Of a DNA stretch of 32,000 nt, positions 1 through 13,415 are shown in pieces. The stretch spans positions 3,630,001 to 3,662,000 of the forward strand of contig CP126532.1 in the NCBI GenBank assembly GCA_030167145.1, given 5' to 3'. The translations under genes were made by a program, and so were the position numbers. The notes beneath the pieces were generated by a model, which was not told the DNA's origin, made no database searches, and worked only from the letters and a program-made list of their open reading frames with translations. Source of the DNA: Ktedonobacterales bacterium (GTDB taxonomy: Bacteria; Chloroflexota; Ktedonobacteria; Ktedonobacterales; JADMIN01). Each line of letters begins with the position of its first letter. Positions within the stretch are counted from its first letter, which is position 1.

Positions 1-789
1 CTTCAGCCACCCCAACGCAGCGAAGTCCTGGACAAGTTCGCCGTGCATGGCCTGCCGCTCTACCTCCGGCTCGCCTTCGAGGAAGCGCGGCGCTGGCATT
101 CTTATGCGCCTGCGGAAAAGACCGTCCTGGACTCGGTTGAGATTCCTGGCATCATTCAGCAACTGTTCACCCGGCTGGGAGAGCCGGCCAACCACGGCGC
201 GGTGTTGGTGGCGCGCGGCCTGGGCTACCTGAGCGCGGCGAAGAACGGCCTCTCAGAAGATGAGCTGCTCGACGTCCTCTCCACCGACTCAGACGTGCTG
301 CACGACTTCCGCGCGCGCTCGCCCAACTCACCCCGCGCCGACCGGCTTCCCGTCGTGATCTGGTCGCGCCTGTACTTCGATTTGGAGCCGTATCTGACTG
401 AGCGCAGCGCCGAAGGCGCGACGACGCTGGCGTTTTACCACCGCGAACTCGGCGACGTAGTGCAAGCCGACTATCTCAGCGGCGAAAACGGCATCGCGCG
501 TCACGGTCACTTAGCGACCTACTTCGCCTGGCCGGACGGCGACGTGGACGGTGCAACAGCGCAGAACCTGCGCCGGATGGCCGAGCTTCCCTATCAGCAA
601 ACCATGGGCGAGCAATGGGACGCGGTATTCGCCACGCTGACCAACTTCCGCTTCCTGGAGCAGAAAGCGGCGCACCTGGGCGTCATGGAGCGCACCGACG
701 CGCAACGGCAGGTCATCAAGACCTACACCGGCGTCTACCTCCTACAAGATGACTACGACCTAGCCCTGCGGCAAATGCCACCGCAATGA
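1..789 (+). CDS. 3' part of a STAND/NACHT-family NTPase gene (helical arm after the NTPase core); 5' end lies outside the window
   Basis: Frame 1 is open from nt 1 (LQPPQRSEVLDKFAVHGLPLYLRLAFEEARRWHSY...) to TGA 787-789. The motifs PLYLRLAFEEARRW, GLSEDELLDVLS, RLPVVIWSRLYFDLEPYL and LAFYHRE match my recollection of the post-NACHT arm of NWD/TEP1-like NACHT-WD40 proteins. A WD40 gene follows directly. Confidence 0.6.
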   Translation, partial: LQPPQRSEVLDKFAVHGLPLYLRLAFEEARRWHSYAPAEKTVLDSVEIPGIIQQLFTRLGEPANHGAVLVARGLGYLSAAKNGLSEDELLDVLSTDSDVLHDFRARSPNSPRADRLPVVIWSRLYFDLEPYLTERSAEGATTLAFYHRELGDVVQADYLSGENGIARHGHLATYFAWPDGDVDGATAQNLRRMAELPYQQTMGEQWDAVFATLTNFRFLEQKAAHLGVMERTDAQRQVIKTYTGVYLLQDDYDLALRQMPPQ

Positions 790-859
790 GCATTGCCCAG
801 TGACCTGCCCCGCGAATCCAGGCGACGCATGCTATAGCTCGAAGATAGGAGAAGCGCCA

Positions 860-3109
860 ATGGCTGGGTCCGCTCAGAACAGCCCACTGACGCCCGCTAC
901 CCGCCGCGCGGCTCTCGCCGCCTTCGATAGGGCGCTCACCCGCGAGGCGCACGTGCTCGCCCGCCGCCCCGACCTGCTCTGGCCGCAGCTCTCCAACCGG
1001 CTGCAATGGGGCGATCCTGCCACTGCGGCGATGGTGCGTGCGGAGAGTGCGCGGCGCAGTTCGCAATCCTCACAGCCGTGGCTGCGGCTGGCGACCCCGC
1101 CATTCGAGTCGAACGCGCTCATCCGCACCTTCACCGGACACACACGCCTGCTGCGCGGTTGCGCCTTCAGCCCAGTTGGCAGCGCAGTCGTCTCGGCCAG
1201 CGCAGATCGCACGCTCAAACTATGGGATCCGGCGCGTGGGCAATTGCTCTCAACCCTTGAAGGGCACACCGATGTCGTCACCGCCTGCGCCTACACCCCC
1301 GATGGACGCACCATAGTCTCAGCCAGCCGCGACGCCACCATCAAGCTCTGGGACGCGCAAACCCATGCGTTGCGGGCAACCCTGCCGCGTCAGACCAGCC
1401 CGATCAACACCTGCTGTGTCGGACCAGATAGCCGCCTGGTCGCATCAGGCGGAGACGATGGCGCGCTCACCCTCTCCGACGCACTCTCCGGGCGCGAGCT
1501 TGCCCACTGGCAGAGCCACACTGCACCCGTGCGCGCCTGCGCCTTCAGCGCCAACGGCACGCTTCTCGCCTCGCTCGGCGCCGACGGCGTCCTCAGGCTT
1601 TGGGATGCGGCAGCGCAGCATGAACGCGCCGCGTATACCACTGGCGCTCTGCCAGCGATTGCCGGATGCGCCATCAGCCCCGATGGCCGCTACGTCGCCG
1701 CCGCAGCCGGATTTACCGTGACCGTCTGGGATATCGCCACTGGCCAGGCGCGCAGCGTAGAAGGCGACTATGCCCGCTACTTCTCCTCGTGCTCCTTTAG
1801 CCCCGATGGCGCGTTCCTGCTCGCGAGCAGTTGGGACCACACCGCCAAGATCTACGACACCGATACGCTGCGCCTGCGCACCGTCCTGACTGGCCACTCC
1901 AATCCAGTCGAAGCCTGCGCCTGGAGCCAGAATGGCGCGTCTATCGTCTCCGCCGGTGACGATGCCACGCTCAGGCTCTGGGACGTAAACCTGGCGCTAA
2001 CCCACGCCGCAGCAACTCAATCACAGCCATCCAGCTACGCCACGTCCATCGCGTGGACCTGCGCCTTCAGTCCCGACGGGCGCACCCTCGCGGCCAGCGC
2101 CGACAATGATCTCGTGCTCTGGGATACGACAACATGGCAAGCGCGAGCGCGGCTTGTGGGCCACACCAGCTTCATCACCACATGCGCGTGGAGTCCCGAC
2201 GGCAGCCTGCTACTGACCTCAGGCGACGATGGCGCGCTCACGCTCTGGGACGCGCGGACCGGTACAGCGCACGCCACACTAGCCGAGCAAGAGTCGAGCG
2301 CGGACTCTATCGCGGCTGTGCTGCTGCGCGCGACTGCGACGCTGAACGGCCAGACGACGGGCATCACCACCTGCGCTTGGAGTCCTGATGGCGCGATCAT
2401 CGCCGCCGCCAATCCAGATAACTCGCTTGGTCTGTGGGATGCGCGCACCGGGACGCTCCTCGCCACGCTCACTGGCCACACCAACGCCATCCACGCCTGC
2501 GCCTGGAGCCTGGACAGCCGGACTATCGTCACCGCCAGTTGGGATCAGACGCTGCGCCTCTGGGATCTCGCAACCCACACCACACGCGCTACCCTCACCG
2601 GCCACCAGGGCAACGTAAACGATTGCGCCTTCAGCCCCGATGGTGCGCACATCGTCTCCGCCAGCGACGATCACACCCTCAAGCTCTGGGACGCCCGTAC
2701 CGGCGCCGCGCTCGCCACATTGACACCGCAATTCGGCGCTCGGCCGTCCACTGTGAACGCCTGCGCCTTCTCCCCTGACGGCGCGTATATCGTTTCTGCC
2801 AGCGGCGATGGTACTATCACGCTCTGGGATAGCCAGACCCGGCGCGAGCTTGCCAGCGTCGTGGCGCATCCCGATGCGCTCTCTGTCGCACTCCATCCGC
2901 GCATGCCGCTCATTGCCGTGGGCATCGCCAGTGGCACTGCCCCGCTACGCCTGGAATCTGTTGGCATAGCCTGGTCGCCAGTCGCACCGATTCCAGCGCC
3001 CACACCAGCGCCGCAAATCGCATCCGTGCGCGAGCCATCTCCCGTCGCCCGGACCACCCGCCCCTGGTGGTGGCCATTCGGCAAGCGCCGCTCAGAGCGC
3101 CAGCCATGA
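860..3109 (+). CDS. WD40-repeat protein (about 13-14 repeats, probably two 7-bladed propellers) with an N-terminal STAND-linker-like segment
   Basis: AGGAGA at 847-852 lies 7 nt before ATG 860 (the ORF track starts at GTG 800). Repeated GH...(A/S)xDxTL(K/R)LWD units: LKLWD, IKLWD, LTLSD, LRLWD, VTVWD, AKIYD, LRLWD, LVLWD, LTLWD, LGLWD, LRLWD, LKLWD, ITLWD. N-terminal REAHVLARRPDLLWPQLSNRLQW is typical of the segment between NTPase and WD40 in fused homologues. Confidence 0.9.
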   Translation: MAGSAQNSPLTPATRRAALAAFDRALTREAHVLARRPDLLWPQLSNRLQWGDPATAAMVRAESARRSSQSSQPWLRLATPPFESNALIRTFTGHTRLLRGCAFSPVGSAVVSASADRTLKLWDPARGQLLSTLEGHTDVVTACAYTPDGRTIVSASRDATIKLWDAQTHALRATLPRQTSPINTCCVGPDSRLVASGGDDGALTLSDALSGRELAHWQSHTAPVRACAFSANGTLLASLGADGVLRLWDAAAQHERAAYTTGALPAIAGCAISPDGRYVAAAAGFTVTVWDIATGQARSVEGDYARYFSSCSFSPDGAFLLASSWDHTAKIYDTDTLRLRTVLTGHSNPVEACAWSQNGASIVSAGDDATLRLWDVNLALTHAAATQSQPSSYATSIAWTCAFSPDGRTLAASADNDLVLWDTTTWQARARLVGHTSFITTCAWSPDGSLLLTSGDDGALTLWDARTGTAHATLAEQESSADSIAAVLLRATATLNGQTTGITTCAWSPDGAIIAAANPDNSLGLWDARTGTLLATLTGHTNAIHACAWSLDSRTIVTASWDQTLRLWDLATHTTRATLTGHQGNVNDCAFSPDGAHIVSASDDHTLKLWDARTGAALATLTPQFGARPSTVNACAFSPDGAYIVSASGDGTITLWDSQTRRELASVVAHPDALSVALHPRMPLIAVGIASGTAPLRLESVGIAWSPVAPIPAPTPAPQIASVREPSPVARTTRPWWWPFGKRRSERQP

Positions 3110-4273: not shown

Positions 4274-5620
4274 ATGAAACGGATTGTCATCCTCGGCGGT
4301 GGATTTGGCGGCGTCGCCGCCGCCGCGTATTTGGATCGCGCGTTTCGCCACGACACCGCCGTCGAAATCGTCGTGATTAGCGATACCAACTTCATGGTCT
4401 ATACGCCCATGCTCGCCGAGGTCGCCGGTGGGACGATTGAGCCACGCCATGCCGTGCCGCCGATACGTTCTTTCCTGAAGAAGGCCCACTTTCGCGAGGC
4501 CGGAGTTCTGGCCATTGACCCCAAAAACCGAACGGTGCAGCTTGATCTTGGCAACGGCGCGCGCGGTCAACTCAGCTATGACTACCTGCTGATTGCCCTG
4601 GGCGCGGTCACCAACTTTGCCCATGCGACGGGCGCCGCCGAACACTGCACGGGCCTGAAAGATCTGTTCGATGCCTTCTTCATTCGCAACCGTGCCCTGA
4701 CGATGCTCGAACGCGCCGAGACGACCAACGATCCGCAACTGCGCCGCGAGCTACTGACCTTTGTGGTCGCGGGTGGGGGCTACTCAGGCGTCGAAGGCAT
4801 CGCCGCGCTCGAAGATCTGTTGCACGGGGCCTTACGCTTCTATCCAGGTATTCGGCCAAGCGAACTGCGGCTGATTCTCGCTCCCCACGGGCCGCGTCTG
4901 CTGGAAGAGATTGACCCGCGTCTGGGCGAGTATGTTGTCGAGAAGTTCCAGCGCCGCACCATTGACGTGCGCCTCGGCGTCGGCATCACCGCTGTCACCG
5001 AGCGGAGCGCGACCCTCACCACTGGTGAGGTGATTCCCAGCCGCACCGTCATCTGGACGGCTGGCATCAAGGTCAACCCGGTGCTGCATGGCGTCACTCT
5101 CCCCAAAAATAAACATGGCGCCCTGACCGTGAACGGCTACTTGCAGGTCACCGATCATCCCACCATCTTTGCGCTGGGCGACTGCACAGCGGTGCCGTTG
5201 CCAGAGGGGCAAGGCTTCTATGCCCCAACCGCGCAAAACGCGATTCGCGAGGGCGCGGTCGTTGGCAAAAATATCGCCAGGTTAGTTCGTAACAAGAGCC
5301 GCCTGCAAACCTTCACCTACAAGCCTATCGGCAGTATGGCGAGCCTGGGCCAGCGCCAGGCCGTCGCGCAGCTTGGCGGCCTACGCCTCTCAGGGTTGCC
5401 CGCATGGTTCGCCTGGCGCGGAGCCTATCTTGCCAAACTTCCCAACTGGAGTGACAGGATACGCATTGGGCTGGATTGGATCACGGATCTGTTCGCACCC
5501 GTGGACATCGTGCAGATTCCTGTGGATCGGAGATCTCGGCTAACCCCCTCGTTCACACCATCTTCGCCTCTCGCTGCCTCAGCGCCGGGGACAGGGAGTG
5601 GTGAGAAACAGCCATCGTAG
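4274..5620 (+). CDS. ndh: Type II NADH dehydrogenase (NDH-2) / FAD-dependent pyridine nucleotide-disulfide oxidoreductase
   Basis: GAGGGAG RBS. N-terminal MKRIVILGGGFGGV dinucleotide fold, a second fold VVAGGGYSGVE, and FALGDC near the C-terminal third, as in NDH-2 enzymes. Confidence 0.85.
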   Translation: MKRIVILGGGFGGVAAAAYLDRAFRHDTAVEIVVISDTNFMVYTPMLAEVAGGTIEPRHAVPPIRSFLKKAHFREAGVLAIDPKNRTVQLDLGNGARGQLSYDYLLIALGAVTNFAHATGAAEHCTGLKDLFDAFFIRNRALTMLERAETTNDPQLRRELLTFVVAGGGYSGVEGIAALEDLLHGALRFYPGIRPSELRLILAPHGPRLLEEIDPRLGEYVVEKFQRRTIDVRLGVGITAVTERSATLTTGEVIPSRTVIWTAGIKVNPVLHGVTLPKNKHGALTVNGYLQVTDHPTIFALGDCTAVPLPEGQGFYAPTAQNAIREGAVVGKNIARLVRNKSRLQTFTYKPIGSMASLGQRQAVAQLGGLRLSGLPAWFAWRGAYLAKLPNWSDRIRIGLDWITDLFAPVDIVQIPVDRRSRLTPSFTPSSPLAASAPGTGSGEKQPS

Positions 5621-5796
5621 GACGTGCGCCGATCACTATGCTCCGGGCGGATGCCAGCCTTGGCGCCGTCAGAGCGCACGGAAGGCGAGCGAAGGCGTGC
5701 GCGAAACCGCGTCGAGAAGTGTGAGCTGCTTGAATGCGGCACTGCCAATGAAGCGCGCACTGATGTCGCGAATACCCTCGTGGAAGGAGTACACAC

Positions 5797-7401
5797 ATGG
5801 CCCAGGACACGCAGTATGACGTCATCATCATCGGCACGGGCGCGGGCGGTGGGACGCTCGCCTACCACTTGGCGCCATCGGGCAAGCGCATCTTGTTGTT
5901 GGAGCGTGGCGATTACTTGCCCCGCGAGCTCCAGAACTGGGACGCTGATGAGGTGTTCGTCAAGAATCGCTACGTCTCGCCAGATACCTGGTACGACGCC
6001 GAGAACAGGCCCTTCCAGCCGCAGGTGCACTACGTGATTGGTGGCGCGACCAAGATGTACGGCGCTGCCCTCTATCGCCTGCGCAAGGAGGATTTTGGCG
6101 AGTTGCGCCACTACGACGGCGTCTCTCCGGCCTGGCCAATCAGCTACGATGATATGGAGCCGTACTATTCATATGCTGAGGAACTCTATCAGGTGCATGG
6201 CCACCGTGGCGAAGACCCGACGGACCCACCTGCCAGCGCTCCCTACCCGTTCCCTGCGGTCTCCAATGAGCCGCGCATACAGCAGTTGTACGACAGCCTG
6301 CGGGCCGCCGGCTACCATGCCTTCCACGCACCCTGCGGCATTATGCTGAATGAGCAGCATCGTGCCGCCAGCACCTGTATCCGCTGCCAGACGTGTGACG
6401 GCTACCCGTGCCTGGTGCATGCCAAGTCGGACGCCGAGGTAATCGCCGTGCGTCCCGCGCTGGAGTTTCCCAACGTCACCCTGCTTACGAATGCGCAGGC
6501 CGTAAAGCTCAATACCAGCGCATCCGGCCGCGACGTGACCGAGGTGGTGGTTGAGCACGACGGCGCACGTGAAGTGTATCGCGGGAACATCGTCGTCGTG
6601 TCGTGTGGCGCCGCCAACTCCGCAAAGCTGCTCTTGATGTCAGCGAACGACCGGCATCCTCATGGGCTGGCCAACGGCTCGGACCAGGTGGGGCGCAACT
6701 ACATGTTCCACAACAGCCGCGCCGTCCTGGCCGTCTCGACGGAGGCCAACGACACCATCTTCCAGAAGACGCTGGGCCTCAACGACTTCTACCTGAAGGG
6801 CGTGGACGGGTTTGAGTACCCAATGGGCAACATCCAGATGACGGGCAAGTCGGTCCCTGGGCAGTATCGCGGCGAGAAGCCACGACTGACCAAGCTCGCG
6901 CCGACCTGGAGCCTTACCGATGTGTCCCACCACGCCGTGGACTTCTGGCTCTCCACCGAGGATCTCCCCAGGCCGGACAACCGGGTGACGGTGGATGCAC
7001 AGGGCGCCATCAAACTCAGCTATACGCCCAACAACCAGGAGCCGTCGGAGCAACTGTACAAGAAGCTGAAATCAATGTTACCGCAACTGGGCATGAGTCC
7101 TCACCACCTGATCTCGCGCGACTTGTATATGGAGACTTCGATACCGGTTGCTGGTGTCGCGCACCAGTCGGGCACCTGCCGCTTCGGCGCCGATCCCAAG
7201 ACCTCCGTCCTGGACATCAACTGTCGCGCACATGAGGTGGACAACCTCTATGTGGTGGATACGAGCTTCTTCCCGAGCATTGGCGCGGTCAATCCCGCGC
7301 TCACCGCCATCGCCAACGCGGTACGTGTGGGCGACCACATCCTGCAGCGGCTCGGTGCGCCTACCACTGGACTCACAGTGAGTGGCAGTCAGGCTCGATA
7401 A
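5797..7401 (+). CDS. GMC-family FAD oxidoreductase
   Basis: GGAAGGAG RBS. YDVIIIGTGAGGG FAD fold. C-terminal GMC signature HQSGTCRFG...NLYVVDTSFFPSIGAVNPALT. Cys-rich CIRCQTCDGYPC...AK segment, which I recall from a subset of GMC flavoprotein dehydrogenases. Confidence 0.9.
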   Translation: MAQDTQYDVIIIGTGAGGGTLAYHLAPSGKRILLLERGDYLPRELQNWDADEVFVKNRYVSPDTWYDAENRPFQPQVHYVIGGATKMYGAALYRLRKEDFGELRHYDGVSPAWPISYDDMEPYYSYAEELYQVHGHRGEDPTDPPASAPYPFPAVSNEPRIQQLYDSLRAAGYHAFHAPCGIMLNEQHRAASTCIRCQTCDGYPCLVHAKSDAEVIAVRPALEFPNVTLLTNAQAVKLNTSASGRDVTEVVVEHDGAREVYRGNIVVVSCGAANSAKLLLMSANDRHPHGLANGSDQVGRNYMFHNSRAVLAVSTEANDTIFQKTLGLNDFYLKGVDGFEYPMGNIQMTGKSVPGQYRGEKPRLTKLAPTWSLTDVSHHAVDFWLSTEDLPRPDNRVTVDAQGAIKLSYTPNNQEPSEQLYKKLKSMLPQLGMSPHHLISRDLYMETSIPVAGVAHQSGTCRFGADPKTSVLDINCRAHEVDNLYVVDTSFFPSIGAVNPALTAIANAVRVGDHILQRLGAPTTGLTVSGSQAR

Positions 7402-7427
7402 CCTGCTCGCCACGCCTACAGAGCGGG

Positions 7428-7455
7428 GGCTGCTCCCGACTGGTTGGGAGCAGCC
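7428..7455 (+). terminator. Perfect 10-bp stem hairpin GGCTGCTCCC-gactggtt-GGGAGCAGCC between the GMC gene and cydA (terminator/attenuator or RNA processing site)
   Basis: Inverted repeat read directly, 27 nt after the GMC stop. No U-tract follows, so intrinsic-terminator function is uncertain. Confidence 0.4.
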
Positions 7456-7505
7456 GGAGCGGTGGCACGGACACCGCGCCAGCCGGAAAGAATGGAGTTG
7501 CGCCA

Positions 7506-8873
7506 ATGAGCTCCGATACAGCCGCGCGCGCATCGCTGGGCGTCTCGCTGGCGTTTCACATCGTCTTCGCGGCGGTGAGCATCGGCCTGCCGCTCATGTT
7601 CTGCATCGCCGAGGGCATCGGCCTGCGCAGACGCGACGCCACATGGTATATCCTGGCGCGGCGCTGGAGCAGAGCGTCGGGCATCCTGTTCGTCGTCGGC
7701 GCGGTTTCAGGAACGGCCCTATCCTTCGAATTTGGCCTGCTCTGGCCGCGCTTCATGGGGTTTGCCTCTGGTATTGTCGGGCTGATGTTCACGTTCGAGG
7801 GTGTCGCGTTCTTTATCGAAGCGATCTTTCTGGGCCTGTACCTGTACGGTTGGGACCGGCTGTCGCCGCGCACCCACTGGCTCTGCTCCATACCAGTGGT
7901 CATTTCCGCTGCCCTGGCCTCGCAGTTCATCGTCGCGGTGAACTCATGGATGAACACGCCCACTGGGTTTCAACTCGTCAACGGCAAGGCGGTCAACATT
8001 GATCCCTTTGCGGCGATGTTCAATCCCGCTGCCCCCGCCCAGGCGCTGCACATGCTGATCGCGGCGTATCAGGTGACTGGCTTCACTGTGGCGGCTGTCT
8101 ATGCGGTTGGGCTGTTGCGCAAGCGCAAGAATCCGTACCATATTCGTGGCGTGCAATTGGGCATGATCCTGGCGACGGTCATGGTGCCGCTGCAAGCGAT
8201 CGTTGGCTCCTGGATCGGCGAGATGATCGCACGGCAACAGCCGGAGAAACTGGCCGGCCTCGAAAGCCTTTTCCACACGACGACGGGCGCGCCCTTGACG
8301 CTCTTCGGCTGGCCCGACGCCTCCACCCAGCAAATATACTTTGGCATTGCCATCCCGAAGCTGCTCAGTCTGCTCTCGTTCAATAATCCCAATGCCACCG
8401 TCACCGGACTTGACGCCTATGCCCAGAATACCTGGCCCAGCCTCCCCATCACCCACCTGGCCTTCGACACCATGGCCACCCTTGGTGGCCTGTTCTTGCT
8501 GGTTCCCATCCTCTTCTGGGGCCTCTACTACTGGAAGAAGCGGACGGTTCCGACCGCGCGATGGTTCTTGTGGGTGCTGGTGATTTCCGGACCACTGACC
8601 TTCGTTGCTTTGGAGGCCGGTTGGGTTGCGGCTGAGCTGGGGCGCCAGCCCTGGGTCATCTACAACATCATGCGGACCAGCGACGGCTCGACCACCAATC
8701 CCGGTGTTGGCTTCTTCTTCTTCATCTTTCTGGCGATATATCTCGCTCTAGGCGTGGCCAGCGCCGGATTGCTGCTGCGGCTGGCGCGCGAACGAAAGAC
8801 CTTTGTCCCTGAGAAAAGCAGCTTGGAGACAAGCCAGCCAGTCAGCGGTGAGCCAGTCGGTGTTGAGTCATAG
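7506..8873 (+). CDS. cydA: Cytochrome bd ubiquinol oxidase subunit I
   Basis: GGAG RBS. The N-terminus LSLAFHIVFAAVSIGLPLMF..., multiple TM helices, and WVAAELGRQPWVIY near the C-terminus are characteristic of CydA (short Q-loop type, 455 aa). Confidence 0.9.
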   Translation: MSSDTAARASLGVSLAFHIVFAAVSIGLPLMFCIAEGIGLRRRDATWYILARRWSRASGILFVVGAVSGTALSFEFGLLWPRFMGFASGIVGLMFTFEGVAFFIEAIFLGLYLYGWDRLSPRTHWLCSIPVVISAALASQFIVAVNSWMNTPTGFQLVNGKAVNIDPFAAMFNPAAPAQALHMLIAAYQVTGFTVAAVYAVGLLRKRKNPYHIRGVQLGMILATVMVPLQAIVGSWIGEMIARQQPEKLAGLESLFHTTTGAPLTLFGWPDASTQQIYFGIAIPKLLSLLSFNNPNATVTGLDAYAQNTWPSLPITHLAFDTMATLGGLFLLVPILFWGLYYWKKRTVPTARWFLWVLVISGPLTFVALEAGWVAAELGRQPWVIYNIMRTSDGSTTNPGVGFFFFIFLAIYLALGVASAGLLLRLARERKTFVPEKSSLETSQPVSGEPVGVES

Positions 8874-9030
8874 ACCCATGGCGAAAGCCAGGGGCTTGCA
8901 GCTACCCCGCGCGGGGTGCCACGTCTGGCGGTATGACTGCCGCCCGGCGGCCAATATTGACCGCCGCGTTCAGGTCGGCATGGGCGGAGAACCCACACAC
9001 GACACAGAGGAACTTGGCTTGCGACTTCCG
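8845..9030 (-). ncRNA. Predicted omega RNA (reRNA) of TnpB: scaffold overlapping the tnpB 3' end and RE, with the guide read from flanking cydA sequence
   Basis: By analogy with characterised TnpB systems (e.g. ISDra2), where the omega RNA derives from the tnpB 3' end through the RE plus about 16-20 nt of flank. GC-rich palindrome ACCCCGCGCGGGGT at 8904-8917 plus the RE hairpin. Boundaries are not determinable from sequence alone. Confidence 0.3.
8875..8894 (-). repeat. Candidate right-end (RE) subterminal hairpin of the IS
   Basis: Plus strand CCCATGGCGAAAGCCAGGGG: 7-bp stem, GAAA loop, one bulged A (T on the tnpB strand). 16/20 identical to the LE hairpin, with a compensatory G-C/C-G swap in the inner stem. 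It starts 2 nt after the cydA stop codon. Confidence 0.6.
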
Positions 9031-10020
9031 ATTCGCTTTCTCACAATGCCCACAGTGGCTACACGTGCGGCTGGTGTTGCGCGGGTCCACCAAGACCACG
9101 CGCACGCCTGCCAGTTGCGCCTTGTAGGCAATGAAGGCGCGCAACTGCGCGAAAGCCCAGGAATGCAGCACTCTCCGTTGGCGTTTGCCCGTAACCGTTT
9201 GCTTCGCGCGGATCCGTTCGCGGATGTGCTTGAGGTCTTCAAGCGCAATCCCACGCGAAGTGCCTTTTGCCGTGCTGACCATGGCCTTCGAGAGACAATG
9301 ATTCACATCCTTGACGAAGCGCCGTTCGCGTCCGCTGCGCTTCTTGAGCAGCCGTTTCGCGCTCTTGGTGCCCTTCTTTTGGAGCTTGGCGCGGAAGCGG
9401 CTGTAGCGGGCGCGGACCTGATTGACATGGGCGTGCTTGGGACCGGTGGAGTAGTTCAAGAACTCGCCATCACTGGTGGCCGCCAGGGCGATGATGCCCA
9501 AATCTATGCCCAGGTAGTCTGCTGGTTCCTCTGGTGTCGGCTCAGGCGCATCCACTGTCACAGACAGAAAGAAGGTGGCGCTGCGCTTGCAATACAACAG
9601 GTCCGCTTGCCCGCGCATGCGTTCCAACCGGCCAGCAGCATACGCGCCGAAGCGGAACGGAATGTCCGCCCGCCCGTCCAGTGTCAAGAGCGAGATGCGG
9701 CCTGGCCCCGTAAAGCGGCAAATACGCTCGTCATAGACCATGGCGCCGTGCGGGCGAAAGTGCGGTTGTATCGTCCGGTCGCGCTTGTACGCTTCCACCA
9801 CTTTGGCGATGGCGCGAATGGTCATCTGCGACGACAAGCCGAACCGCTCGCGGATGTCATAGTAGACCAGTTTTTGCAGGTCCACTTTGTTGGCGCACTG
9901 CTCGGCAAACGCGGTGGCCGCCATGTCATTGCAGGCGGCGTTGAATGTTTCCAGCGTCCGCACCAGCGCAGCGCGCTGTTCGGGCGTCGGGGTGAGTTTG
10001 ACGAGCAGCGTTTGTTTCAT
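8902..10020 (-). CDS. tnpB: TnpB (OrfB) RNA-guided endonuclease of an IS200/IS605-family element
   Basis: Start taken at ATG 10020 (MKQTLLVKLTPTPEQ..., typical TnpB N-terminus; the track ORF extends to 10173). RuvC triad candidates are GIDLGI (D), IALEDL (E) and SAHADLNAAVNI (D). Zn finger CSHCGHC...CVVCG. Confidence 0.9.
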   Translation of the reverse strand: MKQTLLVKLTPTPEQRAALVRTLETFNAACNDMAATAFAEQCANKVDLQKLVYYDIRERFGLSSQMTIRAIAKVVEAYKRDRTIQPHFRPHGAMVYDERICRFTGPGRISLLTLDGRADIPFRFGAYAAGRLERMRGQADLLYCKRSATFFLSVTVDAPEPTPEEPADYLGIDLGIIALAATSDGEFLNYSTGPKHAHVNQVRARYSRFRAKLQKKGTKSAKRLLKKRSGRERRFVKDVNHCLSKAMVSTAKGTSRGIALEDLKHIRERIRAKQTVTGKRQRRVLHSWAFAQLRAFIAYKAQLAGVRVVLVDPRNTSRTCSHCGHCEKANRKSQAKFLCVVCGFSAHADLNAAVNIGRRAAVIPPDVAPRAG

Positions 10021-10069
10021 ACAGGCAGTGTACCATAGATTGAGGATACACGTCAGTTGGATCGTATCG

Positions 10070-10093
10070 CCTGTCGGCCTGTCGGCCTGTCGG
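10070..10093. repeat. Tandem 8-mer CCTGTCGG x3 inside the IS left end, between the LE hairpin and the tnpB start
   Basis: Three perfect consecutive copies read directly (10070-77, 10078-85, 10086-93). Confidence 0.9.
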
Positions 10094-10107
10094 CGGGGCG
10101 CATTCCC

Positions 10108-10128
10108 CCCCATGCCTGAAGGCAGGGG
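10108..10128 (-). repeat. Candidate left-end (LE) subterminal hairpin of the IS
   Basis: Plus strand CCCCATGCCTGAAGGCAGGGG: 8-bp stem, TGAA loop, bulged A at 10112. Same orientation and architecture as the 8875-8894 hairpin, as expected for IS200/IS605 ends. Confidence 0.6.
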
Positions 10129-10209
10129 CATCCTGCGCCATTTCTGGTGAACGAGTACACACGAGGGAATCACGTGTGCCTAGGAGCGTTGCAGAGTCGG
10201 AGGAGACGC

Positions 10210-11505
10210 ATGTCACAACTCACCTTGGCTACGTTGGCCGCGCTGCTCGGCTGGATTGCCCTCATTGCTTACGCCGTCCTCGGTGGCGCGGACTTCGGCG
10301 GTGGCATCTGGGATCTCTTCGCCCGTGGAAGAACCGCCGCCCGCGAGCGCAGCGCCATTGCCGGCGCCATGGGTCCGGTGTGGGAATCGAATAACATCTG
10401 GCTCATCTTTGTGCTCGTCATCACCTGGACCGCCTTCCCCATCGTCTACGCCAGCGTTTCAACAGCCCTCTTCATTCCGATCACCTTTGCGCTCATCGGC
10501 ATTGTGCTGCGCGGCGCGTCGTTCAGTTTTCGCTCCCATTACGGCATGCGTGTGGGGGCTGGCGTGGCATGGGGGCACGTCTTCAGCACGGCAAGCATCA
10601 TCACACCGTTTCTGCTCGGCACAGTGGCGGGTGCGCTGGCCGGTGGGATGATCCACGTGTCAGGCTCTCCCGCCCAGGTGCAAGCAAACCTCTGGACCAC
10701 CTGGACCACGCCTTTTGCGCTCGCCTGCGGGGCCTTCGCGGTTGCGCTCTGCGCGGTACTTGCCGCCACCTATCTGACGGTAGACAGCCACAACAATGGC
10801 GACCTGCTCCTGGCTGAGCGTTTTCGGCAGCGCGCCATCATCGCGGGCGCCGTGACGGCGGCTGTGGGGGTGCTGGCGGCAGTGCTGTCGAGCTTCCAGG
10901 CGCCAGTGCTCTGGCATGGGTTGATTGGCAAGGCGCTCCCGTTCTCGTTGGGCGCGATCCTGCTCGGTCTGGCGACTGCCGTGGCGCTGCTGCGCAATGC
11001 CTATGCGGCGGCTCGCATACTGGTGGCTGCGGGGACCGTGTTCATTTTCGCTGCCTGGGGTGTGGCCCAGTGGCCGTACTTCATCGTACCAGATGTGACC
11101 GTAGACAACGCCGCCAGCCCTTCATCGGTGCTGGGGCCACTGTTGATCGTCGCCCTGCTGGGTTTGATCCTGGTGCTGCCTGTGCTCTGGTATCTGTTCT
11201 CCATCTTCAAAGGCCCTGGCACACGCACTGGGCCAGCCACCGGCCCCCACGCTACGACGGCATCCTTCGTGGCATCGCTGCAACCCGCGAGCACATCCGA
11301 CCAGCCAAGCACGAGCGCCATGTCAGCCGCGCCAGTGCAGCCGTCCTCGGTCTCAGGCGGAGCAGTGCGCCAACAAGTGATACCAGTGCTCGCCTTCTCG
11401 CTCGCCGTCGCCGCCGCGACATTCATCACCGCTCTCTATGATGCCGTGCGCAATCGCGCCGGGTCGCGCTCGCGACACAGCCGCACGGAAGCGCCTTCTC
11501 CCTGA
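10210..11505 (+). CDS. cydB: Cytochrome bd ubiquinol oxidase subunit II with a roughly 95-aa C-terminal extension
   Basis: GGAGGAG at 10199-10205, then ATG 10210 (the track ORF starts at 10147). N-terminus LIAYAVLGGADFGGGIWDL is typical of CydB, with about 8-9 TM helices. The core ends near YLFSIFKG; a low-complexity linker and one extra predicted TM helix follow. Confidence 0.9.
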   Translation: MSQLTLATLAALLGWIALIAYAVLGGADFGGGIWDLFARGRTAARERSAIAGAMGPVWESNNIWLIFVLVITWTAFPIVYASVSTALFIPITFALIGIVLRGASFSFRSHYGMRVGAGVAWGHVFSTASIITPFLLGTVAGALAGGMIHVSGSPAQVQANLWTTWTTPFALACGAFAVALCAVLAATYLTVDSHNNGDLLLAERFRQRAIIAGAVTAAVGVLAAVLSSFQAPVLWHGLIGKALPFSLGAILLGLATAVALLRNAYAAARILVAAGTVFIFAAWGVAQWPYFIVPDVTVDNAASPSSVLGPLLIVALLGLILVLPVLWYLFSIFKGPGTRTGPATGPHATTASFVASLQPASTSDQPSTSAMSAAPVQPSSVSGGAVRQQVIPVLAFSLAVAAATFITALYDAVRNRAGSRSRHSRTEAPSP

Positions 11506-11545
11506 GGGCGTATCTTCAACTAGCTAAGACGAGGTGCGAACAGTC

Positions 11546-12505
11546 ATGAATCAACAGCAAACGGGCCAGAAGCGCGACCACCAAATTGCAGTCAGCGCCG
11601 ACGAATTCAACGCTCTTTTCGCGACCGTGTCGCGCTGGGGGCGGTGGGGTGAGCACGATCAGCGTGGTGCGCTGCACTATCTCACATCCGGCAGTATGCT
11701 CGCGGCGATTCGGCTCGTTCGTGAGGGGGTGAGCATCTCGCTGAGCCTGCCGCTGAATACGCATCCTGCCGCCGACAATCCTGATCCTGCCGTCCACTAT
11801 ATGACGATGCTCAGCGACACTGATATTGGCTCAGGATCGCTGCGTTTTGCCAAAGACTACGTTGGCGTGGACTACCACAACGACGGCCACACGCACATTG
11901 ACGCCTTGTGTCACGTGGCCTATCGGGGGTCACTGTACAACGCCAGGTCAGAGGGGAGCGTTACATCGCAGGGAGCGACGATCAATACGATTGGCGCCCT
12001 CAAAGATGGCCTTATTGGACGAGGCGTCTTGCTCGACATTCCGCGCTTGCGCGGTGTGCGCTGGCTTGAGCCTGGCGAGCACATCTTTCGAGAGGACTTC
12101 GAAGCAGCAGAGCGTGAGCAAGGGGTTACGGTCGGTGAAGGCGACATCTTGCTGGTGCGCACTGGACATGCCCAACGCCTTCACGAGCTTGGGCCATGGG
12201 ACACCGCGAACGCCAAGGCGGGTCTGCATCCCAGTGCCATGCCATTCATCGCTGAGCGCAGCGTCGCTGCGCTCGGCTCGGACGGAAACAGTGATACCGC
12301 GCCCAGCAGCACTGTAGGCGTCACGTTCCCCATCCATGTCCTGGCTATCAACGCGATGGGTGTCCACTTGTTGGACTATTTGCAGTTTGAGGAACTCCGA
12401 GTGGCATGTGAACGGGCCAAACGCTGGGAGTTTTTCTTCGTCTCCGCGCCGCTACGTATTGTCGGGGGAACTGGCTCCCCCATCAACCCAATCGCGATTC
12501 TGTGA
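11546..12505 (+). CDS. Cyclase-family protein (kynurenine formamidase-like, PF04199-type)
   Basis: GAGG at 11531-11534 and ATG 11546 (alternative GTG 11534). Metal-binding motif HNDGHTHIDALCH and the later GSDGNSD are consistent with the putative-cyclase family. Confidence 0.8.
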   Translation: MNQQQTGQKRDHQIAVSADEFNALFATVSRWGRWGEHDQRGALHYLTSGSMLAAIRLVREGVSISLSLPLNTHPAADNPDPAVHYMTMLSDTDIGSGSLRFAKDYVGVDYHNDGHTHIDALCHVAYRGSLYNARSEGSVTSQGATINTIGALKDGLIGRGVLLDIPRLRGVRWLEPGEHIFREDFEAAEREQGVTVGEGDILLVRTGHAQRLHELGPWDTANAKAGLHPSAMPFIAERSVAALGSDGNSDTAPSSTVGVTFPIHVLAINAMGVHLLDYLQFEELRVACERAKRWEFFFVSAPLRIVGGTGSPINPIAIL

Positions 12506-12506
12506 C

Positions 12507-13415
12507 TTAGCTCCCCACGCGCTGCGCGCGCCAGTAGCGCCGGTTGCCCAGTGCGTCCCCCGGCTCATTGGCCGAGGTCACGACCCAGCCCGCGTGGTGC
12601 AAATGATTCAGCGCCTCCAGCACCAGGAATGGCCGCGCCGCCTCGACGGCATCCGGGAAGCGTGCGCGCAACATCTCCTGCACCTCGCTGAGCGTCAGGC
12701 CACCCGCTTCCGGCAGCACCGCATAGACCTGATCGGCCAGCCAGTGCTGCGCCTCCCAGCGCCCCTCCTGTTCGGGCGCGGGCTGCGATGGCATCGGCCC
12801 CTGCGACATGCGCGCCGTCGTGGGTGCGCCCGGATGCGGTGACGACACTAGCGGCGTAGATGGATGCACGAAGCGAATCGCAAACGTACAAACCGCATCG
12901 CCGCGCTTCATGCACGTTTGCTCGCTCACCAGCACACGCTCCCCGTAGCGAATCCCCGCCCCCTCAATCGCGCCATGCAGCAGCGAGCAGAGCTTGCGCG
13001 GGCTATCGTAATACAAATACATCCCCGTGGGATCGCCTGTCGTCTCTCCATACCCGAAGAGCGGCGGCCTGATACCCTCGCTCGCCTGGCTCATCTGCTC
13101 ATGCGCCTGGCTCATCATCAGCAACAGATCGCGTCCCCCATGCACCTGGTTCAGCAGATACATGCAGAGGCGGCTCGTCAGCCCATTGAGGATGAAATAG
13201 CGGCCATACTCTAGCAACAGCGTATCCACATCGGCCCGTGTGAGGCGGCTGGCCACCGCGACACCCGCCAGCAGGCGCTCATCTTCGTACACGCGGCTCG
13301 CCAGGGGCGCGTCCGACGCCGATTCGCCGATCCGCTGGCGATAGTCGGCGAGCAGCGACGTCCCAAAACGCTCAGCCAGATACTTCTCCCACGTGACGAA
13401 GACGAGTCCGTGCAT
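12507..13415 (-). CDS. H-NOX (haem NO/O2-binding) domain protein with Pro-rich linker and C-terminal winged-helix-like domain
   Basis: Aligns by eye to Tt H-NOX and sGC beta1. N-terminal MHGLVFVTWEKYL (Trp9). LLLMMSQAHEQM with His105 (codon 13101-13103). GIRPPLF. Y136-D-S138-P-R140 (YxSxR haem-propionate motif). LHGAIEG. Residues about 215-302 (LTLSEVQEML...LEALNHLHHAGWVVTSANEPGDALGNRRYW) look like a winged helix. Confidence 0.85.
   Translation of the reverse strand: MHGLVFVTWEKYLAERFGTSLLADYRQRIGESASDAPLASRVYEDERLLAGVAVASRLTRADVDTLLLEYGRYFILNGLTSRLCMYLLNQVHGGRDLLLMMSQAHEQMSQASEGIRPPLFGYGETTGDPTGMYLYYDSPRKLCSLLHGAIEGAGIRYGERVLVSEQTCMKRGDAVCTFAIRFVHPSTPLVSSPHPGAPTTARMSQGPMPSQPAPEQEGRWEAQHWLADQVYAVLPEAGGLTLSEVQEMLRARFPDAVEAARPFLVLEALNHLHHAGWVVTSANEPGDALGNRRYWRAQRVGS

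Follow-up and report, generated by a model that had tools for sequence, protein, structure and literature searches.

What lies between cydA and cydB, the genes for subunits I and II of cytochrome bd, in the genome of this Ktedonobacterales bacterium? In the 32,000-nt stretch of contig CP126532.1 analyzed here, referred to as the window, the stop codon of cydA (8873) and the start codon of cydB (10210) are 1336 nt apart (10210-8873-1). An initial annotation of the window had reported this gap, with both cyd genes intact and a GGAGGAG ribosome-binding site before cydB, and gene coordinates, Pfam matches and the sequence itself bore this out. CydA matched Pfam Cyt_bd_oxida_I at 7.5e-134 over profile positions 2-416 of 418, CydB matched Cyt_bd_oxida_II at 8.8e-64 over the full 302-position profile, and cydA, cydB and the cyclase-family gene downstream are all full-length. 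The gap is occupied by a tnpB gene on the opposite strand. We consider it very probable that a non-autonomous element of the IS200/IS605 insertion sequence (IS) family inserted here by the single-strand "peel-and-paste" route, directly 3' of a minus-strand TTCAC motif that overlaps a TGA stop codon of cydA. The insertion is an ordinary one, the mobile gene involved being of the kind most abundant in prokaryotes, and it would not surprise a specialist.

The ends of the element were set with six close, independent copies: the window copy; L002, a paralog located 1.75 Mb away in the same 5.07-Mb genome (87% protein identity); and L163, L164, L165 and L166, which come from other assemblies (77-78% identity). 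When the flanks of these copies were aligned, similarity started directly after [T/A]TCAC and stopped at ...(A/T)TGAC, and the sequences beyond were unrelated. This alignment moved the span of the element from the 8865-10147 first proposed to 8867-10146, and placed the right end 8 nt beyond its hairpin, where it finishes in TCTATGAC, instead of about 10 nt. The transposon-adjacent motif (TAM), which had been guessed as TTCA(C) near 10147-10152 of the minus strand, is TTCAC at 10151->10147; four of the six copies have TTCAC and two have ATCAC. A scan of viral contigs for tnpB relatives yielded two distant copies only, at 56% and 51% identity, and the first of these (L178) has ATCAC beside a left end like that of the close copies, with a right-end tip that differs. 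No second TAM follows the right end, where the flank reads TCAAC..., and there is thus no target-site duplication.

A direct repeat of 28 nt is present at the two ends (8875-8902 and 10109-10136, 75% identical), with a core that forms an imperfect hairpin, CCCATGGC-GAAA-GCCAGGGG versus CCCATGCC-TGAA-GGCAGGGG. The stem differences between the two hairpins are compensatory (GGC/GCC versus GCC/GGC), and the motif occurs in the window at these two sites only, against 0.00 expected from 100 shuffles. The hairpins stand in the same (direct) orientation, and their position is kept in the five other copies with compensatory changes among them. Terminal inverted repeats are absent, and both subterminal palindromes lie on the same strand. 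As had been described, the right-end hairpin begins just past the cydA stop, at 8875. We also considered a simple pairing of the TAM and of the transposon-encoded motif (TEM) at the right-end tip with nucleotides 5' of the hairpins, as for IS608 TnpA. Consistent covariation is seen at one position only (C:G versus G:C); what looks like a second pair breaks down in L002, L164 and L165, and no claim is made for such a rule.

These boundaries bear on whether an IS copy was simply mis-joined into the cydAB locus during assembly. The element does belong to a repeated family, but it meets its flanks precisely at the TAM and the TEM, and since it differs substantially from its only close paralog (the 87% identity given above) it is not a collapsed repeat. 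The protein and its context are found on one 5.07-Mb contig (JGI 3300045419, Ga0494333_323), and essentially the same contig is present under a second source (5,069,607 bp). An assembly artefact is therefore extremely unlikely.

The tnpB gene encodes a 372-aa protein that matched Pfam OrfB_IS605 (PF01385, 7.7e-10) and Cas12f1-like_TNB (PF07282, 1.1e-22), both beyond cut-offs, and scored 186 bits against NCBIfam NF040570 guided_TnpB, for which the cut-off is 100. Its RuvC motifs are whole (GIDLG with D173, ALEDL with E261 and HADLNAA with D349), as is the zinc finger CSHC...CVVC (C320/C323/C339/C342). Alignment with the counterpart motifs of solved Cas12f/TnpB chains confirmed what had been read from the letters, namely an antisense tnpB with its D/E/D triad and zinc finger complete. 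The triad and the zinc-finger cysteines are kept in all six close copies, and tnpB is evidently under purifying selection, with a ratio of nonsynonymous to synonymous substitution rates (dN/dS) of 0.16-0.20 against each of the five others. More than 7,500 relatives of TnpB were found at E<=1e-20, and the named ones are Ktedonobacterales. A longer, GTG-started open reading frame (ORF) at 8902-10173 of the minus strand was rejected as the tnpB model, as homologs, JGI gene calls and conserved N-termini favour the ATG at 10020.

No Y1 transposase (tnpA) was found in the non-overlapping ORFs of at least 80 aa across the 32-kb window, in agreement with the initial annotation, and the element itself has space for tnpB alone. 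According to Meers et al. 2023 (10.1101/2023.03.14.532601), a tnpA lies close to only about 25% of tnpB genes; most tnpB genes have none at hand and are presumed to rely on a transposase acting in trans, so that a lone tnpB is the norm. The Pfam and NCBIfam matches, the hairpins and the TAM uphold the family assignment made earlier: from its sequence, the element is an IS200/IS605 member of the tnpB-only (IS1341) type, lying antisense to cydAB. The coordinates of all features are collected in Table 1.

Table 1. Features of the element, of the cydAB locus and of the neighbouring genes, in window positions.
Feature	Position	Strand	Basis or remark
Complete non-autonomous IS200/IS605-type tnpB-only element, 1280 bp	8867-10146	-	Alignment with five other close copies
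TAM TTCAC (GTGAA on +)	10147-10151	-	Abuts left end (10151->10147)
TEM ATGAC	8871->8867	-	Right-end tip
Left-end subterminal imperfect hairpin	10109-10128	-	18 nt inside left-end tip
Right-end subterminal imperfect hairpin	8875-8894	-	Followed by TCTATGAC on minus strand
tnpB, 372 aa, antisense to cydAB	8902-10020	-	Pfam, NCBIfam, motifs
Promoter-like element for tnpB	10027-10056	-	-35 CTGACG (10056->10051), 18-nt spacer, -10 TACACT (10032->10027)
Tandem array, 8-nt unit	10069-10094		Three overlapping 10-nt GCCTGTCGGC copies, 8 nt apart
Predicted omegaRNA scaffold, tnpB 3' end and right end	8867-9073	-	5' limit approximate
Predicted omegaRNA guide 5'-UCAACACCGACUGGCU-3'	8851-8866	-	Flank 3' of right end, antisense to last cydA codons
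cydA, cytochrome bd subunit I, 455 aa	7506-8873	+	Pfam PF01654
cydB, cytochrome bd subunit II, 431 aa, intact	10210-11505	+	Pfam PF02322
cydB Shine-Dalgarno GGAGGAG	10199-10205	+	Read from sequence
NDH-2-type oxidoreductase	4274-5620	+	
GMC oxidoreductase	5797-7401	+	
Cyclase-family gene (PF04199)	11534-12505	+	Directly downstream of cydB
H-NOX (haem-NO-binding, PF07700) protein gene	12507-13415	-	

Removal of 8867-10146 in silico restores a reading frame that ends ...GGT GTT GAG TGA ACG..., giving cydA a Gly-Val-Glu-stop terminus and a predicted IS-free junction in which ...GGTGTTGA is joined to GTGAACGAG.... On this basis we infer that the TGA at 10148-10150, inside the TAM complement GTGAA, was the ancestral stop codon of cydA. 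The initial annotation had proposed that, with IS608-like geometry, the last two codons, Glu and Ser, and the stop codon would belong to the IS. This holds for the TCA (Ser) codon and the TAG stop, whereas only the third base (G) of the final Glu codon GAG comes from the element, so that the IS-derived part of cydA is 8867-8873. The terminus has thereby changed from ...Val-Glu-stop to ...Val-Glu-Ser-stop, the Glu itself being the same and one Ser added. Of the ten CydA proteins most similar to this one (79-84% identity), eight have a terminal Glu, as do most of the 75-80% identical cydA orthologs examined at the DNA level. The restored spacer between cydA and cydB would be 59 nt, compared with 29-239 nt in related Ktedonobacterales and the present 1336 nt. 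The closest orthologs have no IS, and the reconstructed site fits both their ...E-stop terminus and their spacer length.

A 15-nt tandem near-repeat at 8836-8865 (AGCCAGTCAGCGGTG / AGCCAGTCGGTGTTG, 80% identical), which stops 1 nt short of the element, encodes the C-terminal tail of CydA; relatives have a tail about 8-11 aa shorter. Because of the near-repeat, the guide predicted for this element has a partial second match next door. A separate case of an altered host gene terminus was seen at L165, where the family copy extends over the 3' end, as called, of a DoxX_3-family gene (491-569). That ORF has its last ~26 codons and its stop within the left end of the IS, making it a second host gene whose end has been rewritten by the element.

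The cydA-cydB junction was then compared with that of about 140 further cydAB loci, drawn from both genomes and metagenomes and including at least 17 syntenic Ktedonobacterales orthologs. None of them has a tnpB homolog at the junction (tblastn, E<=1e-8). The order NDH2-GMC oxidoreductase-cydA-cydB is kept in the closest relatives without the IS, and this common upstream order identifies their loci as positional orthologs. The spacer is between -23 and about 240 nt in nearly all loci. The expectation that cydA and cydB are normally adjacent or overlapping should be relaxed: within this clade, there is no overlap, the genes being normally 29-239 nt apart, and one relative has a whole transporter gene between them. 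In this relative, a Ktedonobacterales metagenome-assembled genome (MAG; L009), a 405-codon SBF-like transporter gene (PF13593, 2.9e-10) occupies 5364-6581 in the same orientation as cydA and cydB, and the spacer is 1479 nt. Other relatives have palindromic inserts that lengthen the spacer to 135-239 nt: a nested inverted repeat of about 180 nt resembling a miniature inverted-repeat transposable element (L004 5354-5531 and L086 3259-3436), and palindromes of the repetitive extragenic palindromic type (L176 3836-4050). Small elements seem to have landed repeatedly in the spacer between cydA and cydB. Long gaps were also present in three distant loci, two of them Poribacteria MAGs (L031 5296-6660, 1363 nt, with minus-strand ORFs of 194 and 152 codons; L061 5287-5748, 460 nt) and the third a metagenome contig resembling a partial cydA duplication (L133 3461-3923, 461 nt).

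This survey bears on whether the gene has been domesticated, that is, whether TnpB has become a fixed, host-recruited RNA-guided regulator of the TldR kind that controls cytochrome bd expression. The copy is single in its exact form, its predicted guide is complementary to the 3' end of cydA, and no tnpA lies nearby in the window, all of which such a regulator might display. A tnpB fixed at the junction in orthologs, which the initial annotation had regarded as the sign of domestication, is absent from the roughly 140 loci, syntenic relatives included, and the event is accordingly a lineage-specific insertion, probably of a functional selfish element. TldRs are nuclease-dead, while the RuvC triad is whole here; both ends, with the TAM and the TEM, are likewise whole and recur in copies at unrelated sites. 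Domestication is already largely refuted by these data and is highly improbable.

The right-end boundary, combined with the known geometry of TnpB and its omegaRNA (Meers et al., 10.1101/2023.03.14.532601), places a putative guide in the cydA flank. RNAalifold applied to the six copies gave 55 pairs, 10 of them with compensatory double changes, in stem-loops spanning the last ~200 nt of tnpB and the right end, and the single-sequence fold of the putative omegaRNA has z = -2.4. A terminator-like hairpin followed by CTTTTCTC was noted in the cydA antisense strand (8819-8836, minus), 31 nt past the right end. It could end the tnpB/omegaRNA transcript; such matches occur at chance frequency in the region.

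How the element would behave at this site can be outlined from what is established for its family (Meers et al. 2023; Altae-Tran et al. 2023). A promoter of its own in the left end would drive tnpB in the antisense direction to the operon, and the 3' part of the transcript with the right end would fold into the omegaRNA, the guide being 16-20 nt of flanking cydA antisense. TnpB with this RNA may then cut any IS-free allele, in which TTCAC is followed by TCAACACCGACTGGCT, the same sequence as the guide, and homologous repair of the cleaved allele would restore the element. The occupied locus would be spared because ATGAC stands in place of the TAM. TnpB promotes the retention of its element (Meers et al. 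2023, 10.1101/2023.03.14.532601; Altae-Tran et al. 2023), and movement to new sites would need a Y1 TnpA acting in trans. Expression of cydB and of the cyclase-family gene most likely occurs by read-through across the element, which is the weakest inference of this scheme.

The left end bears on the first of these steps. The -10 TACACT of the promoter-like element sits 6 nt before the tnpB ATG, and this spacing suggests a leaderless or near-leaderless mRNA. In other copies, the element reads TTGA(C/T/A)G-N17-18-TAC(A/G/C)C, and the window copy scores under the threshold of the consensus scan. The 8-nt unit within GCCTGTCGGC is present three times in the window left end and once in L002, and its expansion breaks a small conserved left-end hairpin, which is CCGCC-N4-GGCGG in other copies.

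Several observations weigh against the insertion as described above. The exact predicted IS-free 24-mer was absent from the metagenome collection, and the closest cydA orthologs are just 80-84% identical, with no near-isogenic IS-free allele among them (best identity <=76% in GTDB genomes, <=80% in JGI metagenomes and <=84% in a 5.8-billion-protein database). The omegaRNA model draws on 6 sequences only. An Rfam scan of 8000-11000 at E<=1 gave a sole match, a spurious one to a eukaryotic long non-coding RNA, and hence no curated omegaRNA family applies. The weakened -35 (CTGACG versus TTGACG) and the repeat expansion may reflect regulatory decay of the left end. The window copy is unique in exact form, its nearest paralog being 87% identical (protein), and there is consequently no sign of recent transposition. 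Finally, the consensus scan found no sigma-70-like promoter on the plus strand upstream of cydB.

Some of these points would fit a stranded relic, an element left immobile in a genome without a cognate TnpA, its left end degenerating, that persists passively. The lack of tnpA in the window, the uniqueness of the copy, whose nearest paralog is at a synonymous divergence (dS) of ~0.5, and the mutated -35 and expanded repeat are consistent with such a history. The tnpB ORF is nevertheless whole and under purifying selection, the two hairpins are preserved along with the TAM and the TEM, and the negative result for tnpA covers the 32-kb window out of a 5.07-Mb genome. The initial annotation had also raised the matter of further genomic copies, and L002 is one. 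Comparison with it revealed a mosaic: a 200-nt tract (9179-9378) is perfectly identical, and the dS of tnpB is 0.19 from codon 200 to the end versus 0.89 in the first 200 codons (the overall figure is that given above). This pattern suggests recent gene conversion or recombination between two IS copies of this genome, and such recent exchange argues against a relic, which we regard as possible but unlikely.

The consequence of the insertion for the operon was considered separately. The consensus promoter scan of 7200-10400 returned nothing on either strand, and terminator-like hits were at chance level (3 found versus 2.8 expected). The insertion might be polar and inactivating, with the antisense IS blocking transcription into cydB and the cyclase-family gene and leaving a non-functional cytochrome bd whose ORFs have not yet decayed. 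In support of this, cydA and cydB are now separated by 1.28 kb of DNA that is transcribed convergently and contains two GC-rich hairpins, and the scan gave no promoter-like site upstream of cydB. No second cydA (at least 51% identity) from this genome was among the top 120 homologs, so that nothing points to a need for redundancy. On the other hand, cydA, cydB and the downstream gene have remained full-length, the N-terminus of CydB is conserved and its ribosome-binding site is strong. There is no convincing plus-strand intrinsic terminator in the IS, given the chance-level count, and L009 tolerates a 1.48-kb gene at the same position. We therefore judge polar inactivation to be improbable. 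Read-through is favoured because relatives tolerate other material at this spot, namely the transporter gene, the inverted repeats and the palindromes. It is very unlikely that the insertion is non-neutral in the sense of an early host co-option of a nuclease-competent TnpB, in which convergent tnpB transcription or binding of TnpB-omegaRNA at the cydA 3' end would alter the CydA:CydB ratio.

Comparison with known systems places the element among the tnpB-only types. IS608 of Helicobacter pylori uses TTAC and has a tnpA. Like the present element, it inserts 3' of a short motif without target duplication, its left-end hairpin lies ~19 nt from the tip (18 nt here) and its right-end tip is a few nucleotides past the hairpin (~10 nt, versus 8 nt here). 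ISDra2 of Deinococcus radiodurans is autonomous, with a tnpA, and its TAM is TTGAT. The ISDra2 TnpB, a TAM-dependent RNA-guided nuclease solved with its omegaRNA (PDB 8H1J, 8EXA), shares the protein family and the RuvC and zinc-finger architecture; the similarity is distant only (E = 3e-6 over residues 162-362), and the solved chain has 408 aa versus 372 aa here. The best solved-structure match to the RuvC/TNB half was Cas12f (9NZQ, 8HR5; E = 2.7e-27), with which the catalytic and zinc motifs align. Unlike Cas12f, the protein described here has no CRISPR array, has a shorter N-terminal half and occurs in a transposon instead of a defence locus. TldR proteins are also TnpB-family proteins with a guide matching adjacent host DNA, as predicted here, but the present element has its RuvC triad and transposon ends whole and no conserved association with a neighbouring gene. 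The organization parallels that of the tnpB-only, IS1341-type ISGst elements of Geobacillus stearothermophilus (10.1101/2023.03.14.532601). In both, a lone tnpB lies between one-strand subterminal hairpins, a 5-nt TAM stands 5' of the left end with a related but different TEM at the right-end tip, the omegaRNA (predicted here) overlaps the tnpB 3' end and the right end, and mobilisation in trans is presumed for want of a tnpA. TTCAC, the TAM here, is the TEM in ISGst2 (10.1101/2023.03.14.532601). In contrast to the ISGst elements, the host phylum is Chloroflexota (Ktedonobacterales).

The plus-strand genes of 4274-12505, from the NDH-2-type oxidoreductase to the cyclase-family gene, form a respiratory cluster. 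The cydB start at ATG 10210 is preceded by GGAGGAG with 4 nt between, and the N-terminal MSQLTLA of CydB is kept in relatives. A GTG-started ORF at 10147-11505 (plus strand) was rejected as an alternative model of cydB on the same grounds as the longer tnpB model, with homologs, JGI gene calls and conserved N-termini favouring the ATG. The presence of H-NOX and cyclase-family genes directly downstream of cydB raises the possibility that gas sensing is functionally linked to the bd oxidase. Farther upstream, an NWD1-like winged-helix ORF (43-789, plus strand) is followed 10 nt later by a 769-aa WD40-repeat ORF. The pair spans 43-3109 and resembles the C-terminal portion of a protein of the STAND/NLR type, which may be split or extend upstream of the window.

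For annotation, these results mean that the end of CydA is partly transposon-derived and that an IS, rather than a misassembly or a new gene, accounts for the 1.3-kb "gap" in the operon. For a very large branch of TnpB in Ktedonobacterales, the locus also defines the TAM [T/A]TCAC, the TEM and both ends and yields a candidate omegaRNA, and the defined TAM and ends could help in mining compact (372-aa) RNA-guided nucleases. For the organism, it offers a natural case of cytochrome bd genes more than 1 kb apart across antisense DNA. In relatives, a transporter gene and palindromic inserts occupy this same spot; combined with the IS here, they suggest that tight coupling of cydA and cydB is not required in this clade.

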